A stretch of DNA of 63,573 bases, the filler included, from Reclinomonas americana ATCC 50394 (Eukaryota): assembly GCA_048213135.1 (NCBI GenBank). It is 6 parts of 4 records of this genome, joined end to end, with 100 filler letters (N's around TTAATTAATTAA, not from the genome) between each part and the next. Parts side by side here need not be neighbours in the genome. Positions count along the whole stretch, not along the records: positions 6,554 to 24,908 come from PS015251.1; positions 25,009 to 47,631 come from PS015252.1; positions 47,732 to 56,173 come from PS015253.1; positions 56,274 to 62,104 come from PS015253.1; 2 more parts are not named here. One strand, given 5' to 3'. Made by a program: the position numbers and the translations under genes. Under the pieces are notes generated by a model. It had not been told where the DNA came from and made no database searches. It was given only the letters and a program-made list of their open reading frames with translations. This document shows positions 10,690 through 62,104 of this stretch, piece by piece; within the stretch, counting starts at the first letter, position 1, and each line of letters starts with the position of its first letter.

Positions 10690-13600
10690 ATGAGTGCAGC
10701 ATCCGTCTCTGCACATCCTCCCACTGAGCTTCCACTCTCTCCCGGAGGAGGAGGAGGAGCTGGAGCTTCAAATTCGCGCCTGCGTCCGGCCTCGGCACTG
10801 AACCGCTCTCCACTGATTGAGAAGCGCGATGCCTCGCGACACTCACCCGGCGCTGACTCACTCAGTGCGTTGTTGAGTGAGGTCGAACGAGGGGCGTTGA
10901 GCATGGTGAGTCATATGAGTGAGAGAGAAGAAAAAGGAGGGAAAGAGTGGGTGGAAAGGGAGTGGGAAAGTGAGTGGAAAGAGTGAGTAAGTAAGTGTGC
11001 TATGCAGGGTAAGTGGGTGCTAGAGAGTGAGAGGGCCGTCGAGAGAAAAGAGAATCGAAAGGACTGTTTGTGAAAGATATCAGTGAGAAAGAGAGTGGGA
11101 AAGTGAGTGGAAAGTAGGAAAGTGAGTGCAAAGAGTGAGCAAGTGAATGTGTTGTGCAGAGCAAGTGAGTGCTAGAGAGTGGAAGGGCCACAGAGAGAAA
11201 GGGAATCGAAATGAGAGATATCAGTCAGAAAGAGAGTGGGAAAGTGAGTGGAAAGAGTGAGCTTGTGAGTGCAAAGAGTGAGTGAGCGAGTGTGCTATGC
11301 AGGGTAAGTGAGCGCGAGTGAGTGGAAGGGCCATGGAGAGAAAGGGAATCGAAATGTGACAGATATCAGTGAGAAAGAGAGAAGATTGAGTGGAAAGTGT
11401 GGGAAAGTGAGTGCAAGTGGGGTAAAGAGCTCACAGGCCACACAGAGAAGCGACTAGAATGAGTGGAAGAGTGAGCAAGGGAGTGTGAGAGTGAGTGAGC
11501 ATTGAAATGACTGACTGTGAGAGATATCAGTGAGAATAGTGAGTGGAAAGAGTGAGCAAGTGAGTGTGTTGTGTTGAGCGAGTGTGTGCTGGTGAGTGCA
11601 GTGAGTGAGAATGAGTGCAAGTGAGTGTGTGAGCGAGCGAGAGTCGAAATGACTGATAAAGTGGTTTTGAGTGTGTGGAAGAGTGAGCAAGTGAGTGTTT
11701 ATCAGTGCAGTGTGCGTGTGTCTGTGTGTGTGCTGCGAGTGGGCGAGTGAGCGGGAAAGAGTGCAAGTGCCAGTGAGAGGCGGTTGTGATGAATTCGTGT
11801 CTGATATGAGTGAGATGAAGGGCAAGATTGAGTCTTGTGTGTCTTGTTGGTGCAGTGAGTGACTGCTGTGAGTGCTCATGTGAGTGAGAGATAGCAAGTG
11901 TCAGTGTATGAGGGAGGGAATCGTAAAGAAAACGTGAGATGCGAACGAACATTTGTCTCCTTCTCTCTCTCTCTTTCACACACACTCACACGCGCATAGA
12001 GAGAAGGCCACCGAGAGGGAGAGAGAGCCTGTTTCACTTGTTTATCATGCCAGCTGTTTCCTTTGTTCGATATTCGGGTACTGATCACCTAATCATGTCG
12101 TTTGTATCGCGCAGGTTGGTTGGCGCGGAGATGTATCGGAGAGTGACTTGGCGCGAATTGCGGCGGTGTTGCGGAATAGTGGCGAGAGTGGAGCGTCGTT
12201 GCAGTCGTTGGGTGAGTGGTTGATTGAGAAAGAGAGAAAGGAGTCCTTGTTTTGCTGACTATTTTGTGCGTTTCTTTTGTGCACAAAGTGTTTCATGGAG
12301 GTGAGTGGATGCGGTGCGAGTGGGTCAGAGGGTGTCGCTTGCTATCTTTGTCCTTGTCTTGTTGCACGATTTCGAGTGCGAGTCATTGTTCTGCGTCTCC
12401 GAATTCCTTCTCGAGCGAGTTGACATCTCTCGTTTCTCTTTCTCTTTCGTATCTTTCGTATCTCGAGCTGCTTTCCTTCACGGAACGGTGCCAGTGAGTC
12501 GCTTCCTGTCTGTTCTCGTCGAGCTCCTCCTCGCTCATTCCACCTCTTCCTTCGTCTCACTTCGCCGCCCTTCTCTCTTGCAGGTCGGGGACTTGGTGCT
12601 GGCGATGTGAGTATCGTGGCCGACGCACTGGCGGGTAACACCACGCTCGACACGCTGGAGATTGCAGGTGCGTGGCGCAGGCAACTCGCGCCTCTGTTGC
12701 TTCCCACTCACGTTCGTGCGTTCCACAGGTCACCGCATTGGAGCGGACGGAATCGCTGTGCTATGCCGCGCTCTGGCCTCTGAGCGTTGCGGCCTCTCGT
12801 CACTTGTGCTGGACAGTTGCGCAACCCGCAGAGCTTGCACCTTCTTGGTGACTCTCCGCACCTCCACCCTCCATTATTCCTTCCCTGTTCCGTTGTCCCC
12901 TATGGTTGAATGCGTCTCTCACCCTTTTCACCCCAACAGGCAATAATGCCACTGACGCCGGCGCGACAGCGATTGGCGCAATGTTGGCCTCCAACAAGTC
13001 ACTAAAGACCCTGTCCATCACGGGTACGTTTCTTGCTCTCCCCCTCGCTCCCCGTCTCGCTCTCCTCTCTCGCTGTCCTCGTTCTCCCCCTCGCTTTTCT
13101 CCTCGCACTCCACATCGCTCTCCTCCTCGCTTCTCGCTGCTCCCCCTCCCCCTCGCTTCTCCTCTCCCCTCGCTGCTCCTCTCCCCTCGCTACTCCTCTC
13201 CCCTCGCTGCTCCTCTCCCCTCGCTGCTCCTCTCCCCTCGCTGCTCCTCTCCCCTCGCTGCTCCTCTCCCCTCGCTGCTCCTCCCCTCGCTGTTCCTCCC
13301 CTCGCTGCTCCTCCCCCTCGCTGCTCCTCCCCCTCGCTGCTCCTTCCCCTCGCTGCTCCTCCCCCTCGCTGCTCCTCTCCTCTCGCTGCTCCTCTCCTCT
13401 CGCTGCTCCCTCTCTCGCTGCTCTCCCCCCTCGCTGCTCCTCTCCTCTCGCTGCTCCGCTCCTCTCGCTGCTCCCTCTCTCGCTGCTCCTCCCCCCTCGC
13501 TGCTCCTCTTCCTCTCGCTGCTCCGCTTCCTTTCGCTGCTCCGCTTCCTTTCGCTGCTCCGCTTCCTTTCGCTGCTCCGCTTCCTCTCGCTGCTCCGCTT

Positions 13601-13749
13601 TTCTCGCTGCTCCTCCTCCTCTCGCTGCTCCCTCTCTCCCCCCTCGCTCGCCTATTCCCCTCACCCTCCTTCCCCTCACCCTCCCTTCCCCTTCATCAGA
13701 CAACGCCATTGCCGGCACCGGCGGTCGCGCCATCCTCTCCGCTGTCGCC
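10690..13749 (+). CDS. RNI-like leucine-rich repeat protein (3' end lost in gap)
   Basis: Exons 10690-10905, 12115-12211, 12289-12300, 12584-12667, 12729-12815, 12940-13023 and 13700-. They encode 28/29-aa repeats such as IVADALAGNTTLDTLEI and IGAMLASNKSLKTLSITDNAI. Confidence 0.75.
10960..11900. repeat. Degenerate GAGT-rich tandem repeat filling intron 1 of the LRR gene
   Basis: Recurrent gaatcgaaa...agatatcagtgagaaagagagtgggaaagtgagtggaaag blocks roughly 130-150 nt apart. Confidence 0.75.
13130..13650. repeat. Intronic minisatellite (ctcgctgctcc + C/T run)
   Basis: Many tandem copies of cctcgctgctcct inside intron 13024-13699. Confidence 0.9.
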
Positions 13750-14665
13750 NNNNNNNNNNNNNNNNNNNNNNNNNNNNNNNNNNNNNNNNNNNNNNNNNNN
13801 NNNNNNNNNNNNNNNNNNNNNNNNNNNNNNNNNNNNNNNNNNNNNNNNNNNNNNNNNNNNNNNNNNNNNNNNNNNNNNNNNNNNNNNNNNNNNNNNNNNN
13901 NNNNNNNNNNNNNNNNNNNNNNNNNNNNNNNNNNNNNNNNNNNNNNNNNNNNNNNNNNNNNNNNNNNNNNNNNNNNNNNNNNNNNNNNNNNNNNNNNNNN
14001 NNNNNNNNNNNNNNNNNNNNNNNNNNNNNNNNNNNNNNNNNNNNNNNNNNNNNNNNNNNNNNNNNNNNNNNNNNNNNNNNNNNNNNNNNNNNNNNNNNNN
14101 NNNNNNNNNNNNNNNNNNNNNNNNNNNNNNNNNNNNNNNNNNNNNNNNNNNNNNNNNNNNNNNNNNNNNNNNNNNNNNNNNNNNNNNNNNNNNNNNNNNN
14201 NNNNNNNNNNNNNNNNNNNNNNNNNNNNNNNNNNNNNNNNNNNNNNNNNNNNNNNNNNNNNNNNNCACAAGAGAAGGAGAAGGAGAGTGAGCGTGGGCTA
14301 TAAATAGATGGACTGGACATGGCAAAGATCACGCGCGCGCACACCAAACACCCCGCGCGACTGGTGGGGGAAGAGAAAAGAGAGGCAAGGAGGAGAGGAG
14401 GTGGGGGGGAGGGAACAGGTGGAAGAGAAAGAGACACGAAGATTCGCACAAGGCGAATGACAGGAAGCGTAACGACACTGCGCCGAACACGCAGCGGGAA
14501 GAGGAGAGCAAGAGAGGTAGAGGACACAGAGGAGCAAGAGAGAAAGAGAAGAGAAGAGAGAGAAGAGGAAAGTAGAAACAAGACCGTGAAGGACAAGAGA
14601 CAGAGAGACAAACACACAAACACACATACAAGCAGAGAGATAGGGAGTAGAGAGGGTCAACTCAC

Positions 14666-14709
14666 CGACGCACGACTCCGCCCGGTCCATGAACCTTGAG
14701 GCTGATCAT
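14666..14709 (-). CDS. First exon of a gene running into the gap, possibly a PB1/ubiquitin-like N-terminus
   Basis: ATG...MISLKVHGPGGVVRR followed by a GTGAGT donor. Downstream exons were not resolved. Confidence 0.35.
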
Positions 14710-61361: not shown

Positions 61362-61862
61362 GGCGACGTCGCGTATGAGATGAGAGAATGATGCGAAGTT
61401 GCATGCGGGACAACTGCACTTTGTTTGCCAGTCGCGTCGACACTCGAGACCTCCGCGGCCCATCCGAGGTGCTGGTCAAGCCTTCTTACCAGATTACGCA
61501 CGGCTATTGATGATAATCTTCCCGACGTCGACATCCAATGTACACGTTCAAATTATCTTTTCCACTCTGTCGTCGGTGGTAGTGATCGTTGCAACTAGTG
61601 CTATGTGGCTATGATGTATAAGCACCAAGGGCGCACGAGCAGGAGTGACTTCAGCGTGTCATCGCGTCCCACTCGGACTTCGTCAAAAAGGTGAGAGAGA
61701 GCGCGCACTGCTTCCGACTGTTTGCGTATTGCAGCACCGCTGTCTCTCTCTTTATGCATTTGCGCCAATGTGTGCCACAAACTGCATTTGTGTGTTTCGA
61801 GTGGGTGCTGGGGGGCATGTCATGTCTCACTTCTCTCTCTGTCTTCCTCTGTGTGCGCAGCC

Positions 61863-62029
61863 ATGACTGATGCATCAGTGGCCAGTGGGAGTGGGAGTGG
61901 TGATGCAGCAGCAGCAGTGGTGACTGAGGCCAGTGATCGCGTGTACTCTGTTCCGTTGATTGCGGAGGGATCGTGGGTCATTGTCAAGTGGGAAGATGGA
62001 TCGAACTTGGTCCGCGTGCAGCGTGGAGC
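61863..62029 (+). CDS. First coding exon, possibly tRNA m1A58 methyltransferase subunit Trm6
   Basis: LIAEGSWVIVKWEDG resembles the Trm6/Gcd10 N-terminus. It is preceded by an apparent 5' UTR intron and truncated by the contig end. Confidence 0.4.
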
Positions 62030-62104
62030 GTTGAGTAAAGAGAGAGAGAGAGAGAGCAGAGGGAGAGAGAGAGACAGAGACAGAGACAGAGACAGAGACA
62101 GAGA

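Follow-up and report, generated by a model that had tools for sequence, protein, structure and literature searches.

A second, one-base-displaced donor architecture coupled to the last exon base in a window of the Reclinomonas americana genome

Introns in a 63.6-kb window of the Reclinomonas americana ATCC 50394 genome (the whole stretch analysed, 63,573 nucleotides (nt) from GenBank assembly GCA_048213135.1, filler included) begin with one of two 5′ splice-site, or donor, architectures. Mostly the donor reads G|GTG(A/C)GT, the bar marking the exon–intron border; about 14–16% of introns start as N|GTTG(C/A)GT, in which the intron motif is displaced by one base through an extra T. We refer to the latter as T-insert donors and define them as GTT[G/A/T]NG[T/C], that is, the local consensus GTG[A/C]GT plus one additional T at intron position +3. 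Donor class is tightly coupled to the last exon base (position −1). As judged from the reading frames and a residue-exact clathrin junction, cleavage at T-insert sites falls before the G; the register in which U1 small nuclear RNA (snRNA) pairs with them, and a compensation for the missing −1 G, are what we infer from this pattern. The window is eukaryotic nuclear DNA made of joined contigs, with a G+C content of ~55% and abundant short introns and gaps, and every junction reported here is based on reading frame, homology and a gene finder written for this work.

The gene finder is a generalised hidden Markov model (HMM) trained on the window. It combines Markov models of coding sequence and introns, an acceptor matrix and a donor model limited to intron positions +3 to +9, which leaves exon-side bases unscored; each region was assigned its strand with Pfam hits and intron composition as the guide. 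A two-component mixture of donors fitted by expectation-maximization converged on GTG[A/C]GT (~70%) and GTTG[C/A]GT (~30%). When the finder was run without any donor model (donor-blind), GTT[GA][ACT]G[TC] started 14 of 161 introns versus 67 of 4688 GT sites on allowed strands, ~6 times background (binomial p = 1e-7). Sorted by the inserted base, sites of the form GT-N-G[AC]G[TC] served as donors in this run in 12 of 62 cases with T, 0 of 13 with A, 1 of 61 with C and 0 of 107 with G. The 80 introns called identically with the intron-side-only donor model and without a donor model make up an objective set; T-insert donors account for 13 of these 80, and for 5 of 36 introns in the WDR90/POC16 gene. 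One of the 13 calls (2552) is false, being the stop codon of a TLDc gene. Together, the donor-blind enrichment and the homology-pinned junctions described below establish that the T-insert class is real.

The curated set holds 20 T-insert introns from at least 13 genes. All 20 are GT-AG introns with (C/T)AG acceptors, measure 55–150 nt and join two open frames; they show U2-type GT-AG intron features, and several junctions are backed by homology. Their median length is 66 nt, versus 69 nt for conventional introns, and their motif is nearly invariant, with G at +4 in 18 of 20, G at +6 in all 20 and T at +7 in 18 of 20. The introns are as follows, with four exon bases before the bar.

12816..12939 (+): gaca|GTTGCGC, phase 1, LRR gene; the 28–29-residue LRR period is preserved, and a rival donor 30 nt upstream would remove one repeat strand
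17802..17885 (−): agtt|GTTGCGT, phase 2; placed by eye, joins two open frames; a nearby C|GTGCGT (phase 0) meets a stop with the same acceptor
18322..18387 (−): ggca|GTTGAGT, phase 1; called by both finder runs, stop 2 nt into read-through
21609..21670 (−): tgca|GTTTCGT, phase 0, rhomboid gene; called by both finder runs, Pfam Rhomboid match in the upstream exon
25333..25396 (+): gatt|GTTGCGC, phase 0; called by both finder runs, evidence from the reading frame alone
25727..25876 (+): ttcc|GTTGCGT, phase 2; called by both finder runs, stop 10 nt into read-through
30133..30198 (+): atta|GTTGAGT, phase 1, topoisomerase III; C4 zinc ribbon regained on splicing
34159..34238 (−): ccac|GTTGCGT, phase 2, PAK1IP1-like WD40 gene; placed by eye, stop 13 nt into read-through, 190-residue open frame downstream
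39304..39362 (−): caat|GTTGCGT, phase 0, WDR90; called by both finder runs; homology does not distinguish it from G|GTCAAT six bases upstream
39538..39605 (−): catc|GTTGCGT, phase 2, WDR90; top of 23 frame-compatible GT-AG pairs, orthologue HMM 52.4 versus 50.2
41428..41489 (−): ggcc|GTTGCGT, phase 1, WDR90; top of 39–73 alternatives, HMM 81.2 versus 78.5, profile coordinates 323–358 and 357–396 meeting at the junction
41913..41967 (−): acga|GTTGTGT, phase 0, WDR90; top of 236 by homology and acceptor score; an in-frame 40-nt rival with donor 41952 remains
42769..42833 (−): cagc|GTTACGT, phase 1, first intron of WDR90; top of 22, donor-blind call; an in-frame rival, G|GTTCAGT at 42863, remains
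44495..44568 (−): gcac|GTTGCGT, phase 2, RRS1; top of 54 with an HMM of 18 RRS1 homologues, 120.5 versus 115.1
46721..46795 (+): cact|GTTGCGT, phase 0, clathrin heavy chain; residue-exact in the alignment to solved clathrin
54689..54756 (−): cgca|GTTGCGT, phase 1, EF-hand gene; unbroken EF-hand helix and loop after splicing
56690..56766 (+): tggc|GTTGCGT, phase 0; called by both finder runs, evidence from the reading frame alone
58717..58797 (+): tgcc|GTTGCGT, phase 2, CWF19L1; called by both finder runs; the downstream exon resembles human CWF19L1 175–236, and the junction lies unpinned in a loop
59242..59307 (+): atca|GTTGCGT, phase 1, CWF19L1; called by both finder runs, stop 47 nt into read-through
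60352..60426 (+): gtca|GTTGCGT, phase 1, CWF19L1; homology of the flanking exons to human CWF19L1

In clathrin heavy chain, the last-but-one residue of the exon upstream of 46721..46795 corresponds to residue 648 and the downstream exon starts at 650, with zero residues gained or lost. For WDR90, an HMM was built from 35 orthologues found from one exon, and all frame-compatible GT-AG pairs at each junction were ranked by HMM plus acceptor score without donor information. The topoisomerase III intron 30133–30198 must be removed because read-through stops after 2 nt, and the first residue of the next exon is the start of Zn_ribbon_Top1 positions 24–38. Within CWF19L1, the sole PDB match of the 22-residue exon before 60352 is human CWF19L1 463–479, the matches of the neighbouring exons end at 458 and start at 485, and the codon split by the intron gives H-V-I here versus H-R-I in the human protein. 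The match to EF-hand_1 positions 6–21 begins at the first residue of the exon after 54689..54756 (a weak match, E = 0.05). Removal of 21609..21670 fuses ...SFA to GHLSG..., a junction that we take to be the rhomboid histidine motif. For the donors at 17885, 18387, 25333, 25727, 34238, 39362, 56690, 58717 and 59242 the evidence consists of reading frame and finder agreement, to which 21670 adds the presumed histidine motif; at 17802..17885 the frame evidence covers this donor and the nearby C|GTGCGT. Pfam searches with the single exons flanking 25333, 25727, 56690, 58717 and 59242 returned no coordinates, and the exon preceding 58717, used as a PDB query, did not match CWF19L1.

Motif-bearing sites that are not donors lie at 33875, 17278, 30317, 2552, 5817 and 8092. 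The gene finder made false calls at four of them, of which 2552 and 5817 are stop codons and 8092 and 30317 are coding sequence. The candidate T-insert donor GTTGAGTGA in the TLDc genes was rejected as a stop codon when the three paralogues were aligned for class switching; in these paralogues the conventional donors are conserved, and the stop context GTT GAG TGA resembles a T-insert donor.

The base before the 20 curated T-insert donors is A in 8, C in 8 and T in 4. A reading made earlier from the sequence only had claimed, for about 23 GTT-type donors, that this base is never G; G is indeed absent from all 20 curated sites and from all 13 T-insert calls of the objective set. It had also stated that most conventional donors follow G, as do 28 of 31 in WDR90, a gene whose conventional donors were placed by visual reading and the HMM. 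In contingency tables confined to the window, the −1 base and donor class are dependent, with Fisher p = 2.3e-11 for G at −1 in all T-insert donors (0/20) versus WDR90 conventional donors (28/31). The association is also found inside WDR90 (0/5 versus 28/31, p = 1.5e-4), in the objective set (0/13 versus 40/67, p = 7.6e-5) and in the part of that set within 12811..62036 (0/12 versus 32/52, p = 1.4e-4). Finder errors account for many of the 27 conventional calls in the objective set that lack G at −1, so the true contrast is probably larger. Unused occurrences of the motif have G at −1 in 18 of 84 cases, all 18 of which were inspected and lie in coding exons or antisense to genes; G followed by GTTGNGT is thus not rare as a sequence per se.

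The coupling can be viewed from either side of the border. After G, a degenerate intron side is tolerated; the exact T-insert motif would be expected there only under selection, and its absence needs no active avoidance. The point that needs explanation is that the T-insert motif is the preferred strong form after a non-G base: it makes up 5 of the 8 non-G donors in WDR90. All non-G donors, of both classes, carry the GNGT core. As a separate observation, the −1 base of T-insert donors follows the intron phase, with A in 6 of 8 at phase 1, C in 5 of 6 at phase 2 and T in 3 of 6 at phase 0. Departures from GTTGCG[T/C] are seen at 4 of the 8 T-insert sites with A at −1, versus 1 of the 12 with C or T.

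All six example strings of the sequence-only reading are found where it had placed them (12816 +, 18387 −, 59242 +, 60352 +, 61115 − and 21670 −). Five belong to the curated set as donors and the sixth, 61115, is doubtful. Exons were also said to end often in CA before GTT-type donors; among the 8 sites with A at −1 this is true of 7, but 12 of the 20 sites end in C or T. Conventional donors after a base other than G occur at 26467, 48093 and 59587, as it had noted, and also at 35213, 38540, 37615 and 44847. Taken literally, the statement that no GTT donor follows G is contradicted at 42365, 40022, 39026 (cag|GTTTTT) and 34406 (gcg|GTTTGT); it stands where G-N-G-T is present at +4 to +7. A displaced GNGT is missing from these four donors, whose pairing in the canonical register is good. 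The introns concerned, together with a conventional clathrin intron that bears on finder accuracy, are listed here.

42304..42365 (−): aag|GTTCGT, GTT donor after G; top of 67, with HMM 74–119 and 119–220 meeting at the junction
39961..40022 (−): cag|GTTGGGG, GTTG donor after G; top of 19 by HMM, canonical pairing good (CAG|GU, G at +5), no T at +7
60984..61115 (−): caca|GTTGAGT, the doubtful earlier example; only the GT five bases downstream, 61110 (ttga|GTGAAT), shares a frame with the strong acceptor 60984
35126..35213 (−): tca|GTGAGT, conventional donor after non-G; both finder runs and the by-eye reading
46155..46225 (+): caag|GTCCGT, conventional clathrin intron; solved clathrin puts the exon end at 487/488, which corrects a finder call of t|GTGTGT at 46170

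Splicing from 61115 would depend on the weak acceptor 61025 and lengthen the product by ~9 residues relative to the FAM210 profile; the site is probably wrong as a donor. Position +4 of the conventional WDR90 donors is C in 12, A in 9, T in 8 and G in 2 of 31, a poor fit to a human-type U1 5′ end.

The likeliest of the readings weighed here, quite possible and advanced tentatively, is that U1 docks T-insert sites one register downstream and that the missing −1 G is thereby compensated. The intron's +1 G would then pair with U1 C9, normally the partner of the exon −1 G, the +3 U would pair with U1 A7, and G-N-G-U at +4 to +7 would replace +3 to +6, with the catalytic core still cutting before the only GU. 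The restriction of the inserted base to T fits pairing with U1 A7. We also considered cleavage after the G, which would produce TT...GG introns, and rejected it: in 13 of 20 introns the acceptor is followed by a base other than G and the messenger RNA would differ, so GT-AG is the sole assignment that gives a frame-preserving product.

Duplex energies were computed with a nearest-neighbour model and a human-type U1 5′ end, as printed in the part of PMC4856993 available to us, which may differ from the U1 of R. americana. The canonical register gives 0.0 kcal/mol at all 20 T-insert sites. The shifted register is strictly best at 8 of 20, exactly the 8 with A at −1, and reaches −7.7 kcal/mol. 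Exon composition bears on the register too: C stands at exon −2 in 10 of 20 T-insert sites, versus 2 of 31 at conventional −2 (where A has 15) and 10 of 31 at conventional −3 (where A has 9), and A at T-insert −1 amounts to 40%, versus 48% for A at conventional −2. The earlier proposal that the intron's +1 G stands in for the −1 G thus gains from the two coupled classes, the cut before the G and these register features, and loses at the 12 of 20 sites with C or T at −1.

Those 12 sites are the first of several observations that weigh against a compensating shift. There, CA|G cannot read as CAG and the shift gains no exon pair; 10 of the 12 form no stable duplex in any register, and the remaining 2 form weak shifted duplexes (−1.5 kcal/mol) tied with a bulged arrangement, so the comparison of U1 energies by register that had been suggested favours the shift at 8 of 20 sites and leaves the other 12 undivided. 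C at −1, in 8 of 20, is ~6 times what a shift predicts from conventional −2 (C in 2/31, ~6%), and G at −1, in 0 of 20, falls below the prediction (G in 5/31, 16%; chance 0.03). In silico deletion of the extra U improves the mean canonical duplex (−2.20 versus −1.36 kcal/mol), which indicates that the extra U does not clearly raise U1 affinity, and the C found at +5 in 17 of 20 T-insert donors is a mismatch to human-type U1. The finder, moreover, was trained on the same single window, and its calls at 2552, 8092, 30317 and 46170 were wrong once checked.

A bulged U is one alternative. U1, and later U6, would sit in the normal register (+1 G–C8, +2 U–A7) with one U looped out and GNGU on U1 positions 6 to 3; GTTGCGT would simply be a strong intron side that is tolerated, and selection on total site strength, not a register shift, would confine it to exons ending in a base other than G. 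This arrangement provides the same number of intron-side pairs as the shifted register and ties with it in energy at 2 of the 12 sites where −1 is C or T. The available part of PMC4856993 reports bulge registers at +3 (or +2) proven at human sites, and U6 needs a bulge or a shift anyway for the displaced G-U, a shifted U6 register being described at STAT3 in what is accessible of PMC11162779. We still regard a bulge as rather unlikely, since a G at −1 would gain a pair (in silico mean −4.05 kcal/mol, the best of the arrangements tried), yet none of the 20 sites has one and none of the 28 G-ending WDR90 donors uses the T-insert motif. A bulge also predicts an exon −2 like that of conventional donors (A 15, C 2 of 31), whereas C was observed in 10 of 20; it is never strictly best at the 20 sites and pairing of −1 is impossible at all of them, although energies alone do not decide for the 12 C/T sites. 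Improbable, in our judgement, is a lineage-specific U1, with either a divergent 5′ end or a second variant carrying an extra base, that pairs contiguously with GUUGCGU, two U1 species thereby serving two donor classes. The C at +5 in 17 of 20 T-insert donors, and C being as common as A at conventional +4, fit human-type U1 poorly and would suit it; human variant U1 snRNAs exist, according to the part of PMC3561869 open to us. The near-invariance of the T-insert motif is likewise what a dedicated partner would give. A dedicated U1 alone, however, leaves the permanent absence of −1 G unexplained, and the U1 5′ end is, to our knowledge, among the most conserved RNA sequences of eukaryotes.

Two further explanations would remove the need for any special pairing. 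The pattern could be an artefact of mis-called sites, chance motifs or assembly errors, with the −1 bias arising from site picking; the false finder calls at 2552, 5817, 8092 and 30317, the doubtful 61115 and the 10 of 20 sites placed by reading frame alone all point that way. We consider it very improbable given the donor-blind enrichment (p = 1e-7), the residue-exact clathrin junction and the top HMM rank of the GTT donor at five junctions, out of 22 to 236 alternatives each. The exon side, too, was unused in calling, yet G is found at −1 in none of 13 to 20 T-insert donors versus 18 of 84 unused sites, and random homopolymer error would not follow the −1 base. An origin from introners, mobile-element copies that bring a GTTGCGT end and insert at non-G sites, is scarcely conceivable. 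Eight of the 20 introns do share a common 7–8-base start, GTTGCGTC, but all-against-all blastn among the 20 returned only 12–23-nt low-complexity, CT-rich matches without family likeness, shared 8-mers number 0.16 per pair versus 0.09 in conventional introns, and the lengths are ordinary (the medians given above).

Shifted and bulged U1 registers have already been described for human donors, so the mechanism itself is not new. A full-text literature search, which covered few subscription papers and possibly missed the genome paper, found no organism reported to use such donors as a major class; among the matches listed for GUUGCGU/GUUGAGU-type words combined with splicing there were primers or unrelated items, and the papers found to cite shifted base-pairing to U1 included none on an organism with many such donors. 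We put forward as possible, with more reserve than the register itself, a genome-wide two-register code in which G-ending exons use G|GUG(A/C)GU and most A-, C- or U-ending exons use N|GUUGCGU, with U1 or a dedicated variant docking one base downstream. Should this code be true, R. americana would be the first organism with noncanonical registration as a major, selected and rule-bound class, and a natural system that separates U1 docking from cleavage-site choice. Were the donor pattern genome-wide, gene finders and splice models built on a single matrix would get the position of about one in seven introns of this lineage wrong; our own finder misplaced T-insert introns before it was given the two-component donor model. 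It would also imply that a one-base move of the intron-side signal can free exon ends from the constraint for G, which bears on intron position in codons, and it would offer hundreds of natural, patterned substrates for the coupling of U1 docking, U6 handover and choice of the cut phosphate. In human cells, as far as the accessible parts of PMC4856993 and PMC11162779 go, that coupling has been approached with a few rare sites only.

The genes in the window were identified by Pfam and PDB searches with single open frames or exons. They comprise LRR, RCC1-like, rhomboid and PAP2 protein genes, topoisomerase III, several WD40 genes, RRS1, a clathrin heavy-chain fragment, an EF-hand gene, CWF19L1, a FAM210 protein, WDR90/POC16 (CFA20 domain, ~36 introns) and three tandem TLDc genes; the presence of WDR90/POC16 suggests a cell with centrioles or flagella. 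Close relatives of this genome were sparse in the databases searched: the closest relatives of the RRS1 exon reach merely 30–38% identity, the CFA20-like exon and the first CWF19L1 exon retrieved zero homologous proteins in a search confined to longer proteins, and the clathrin exon matched three loci in metagenome contigs at 37–55% identity over 20–42 residues, none of them a close relative. A scan of the whole window against Rfam at the gathering threshold gave 0 matches, and no snRNA was found in the window.

The contigs are separated by linkers at 6454–6553, 24909–25008, 47632–47731, 56174–56273 and 62105–62204, each N44-TTAATTAATTAA-N44, which are artificial and carry stops in all six frames; gene neighbourhood across them is therefore no evidence for linkage. 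The TLDc genes (1–9829, +) are tandem paralogues with cysteine-rich (TRAF-like) repeats, a coiled coil and a TLDc domain, 73–82% identical including their introns. Topoisomerase III (27466–30617, +) contains Toprim and Topoisom_bac domains, C4 zinc ribbons and a glycine-arginine-rich tail, and at its conventional intron 28144–28206 profile positions 148 and 149 meet exactly across the junction. Past the WDR90 stop codon, the next gene on that strand (PAK1IP1-like WD40) has its ATG after only ~50 nt (35545–35597, −), scant space for a terminator and a promoter. At the other end of WDR90, 760 nt separate its start from the stop of RRS1 (both −), and within them a small gene with an L51_S25_CI-B8 domain (42905–43521, +) runs on the opposite strand. 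Repeats are prominent: an LRR-gene intron holds a CT-rich minisatellite of ~650 nt (13040–13690, +) with units close to CTCGCTGCTCCTCTCCC, and many other introns are filled by long GA/CT and CA/GT microsatellites, e.g. at 58100–58215. The long open frames in a CT-rich stretch at 53000–54400 (+), with a repeating peptide-like period (ALTALTALIAPLF...), are probably a tandem repeat and not a gene.

Among known systems, the nearest to these donors are the noncanonical U1 registers of human introns. Roca and Krainer are said to have described a shifted (+1) register at atypical human donors in Nat Struct Mol Biol in 2009, and Roca et al. reportedly added bulge +2/+3 registers in Genes Dev in 2012. 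Shifted, bulged and asymmetric-loop registers at human 5′ splice sites all feature in the part of PMC4856993 (Tan et al. 2016, NAR) available to us, and the available part of PMC11162779 speaks of atypical sites that "look like one nucleotide was inserted" between +2 and +5 and estimates noncanonical registers together at ~1.5% of human donors. Like the human shifted register, the 8 T-insert sites with A at −1 combine a GU cut at the usual place with, for a human-type U1 5′ end, best complementarity one base downstream. Unlike it, a single type here makes up a share of introns ~10 times that 1.5% for all human noncanonical registers, its GTTGCGT form is near-invariant and excluded after G, and 12 of 20 sites gain no exon pair. 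The bulge +2/+3 registers, as far as PMC4856993 was available, share with T-insert donors the one-base surplus in a GUU context, the intact downstream consensus and the same intron-side pairs; they differ in that none of the 20 sites here has a −1 G and in that exon −2 departs from conventional −2. Like the donors of U12-type introns, those of the T-insert class are a rarer and highly conserved second motif found in the same genes as the main one, but 0 of the 20 T-insert introns has the U12-type donor box and all 20 are GT-AG; a CTRAY-like word occurs in 4 of 20, of which 3 have it within 30 nt of the 3′ end. Compensation between the exon and intron sides of a donor, for example between −1 G and +5 G, is a known dependency, and here too a missing −1 G is accompanied by a stricter intron side; in T-insert donors, however, the whole intron-side motif is displaced by one base and not just strengthened in place.

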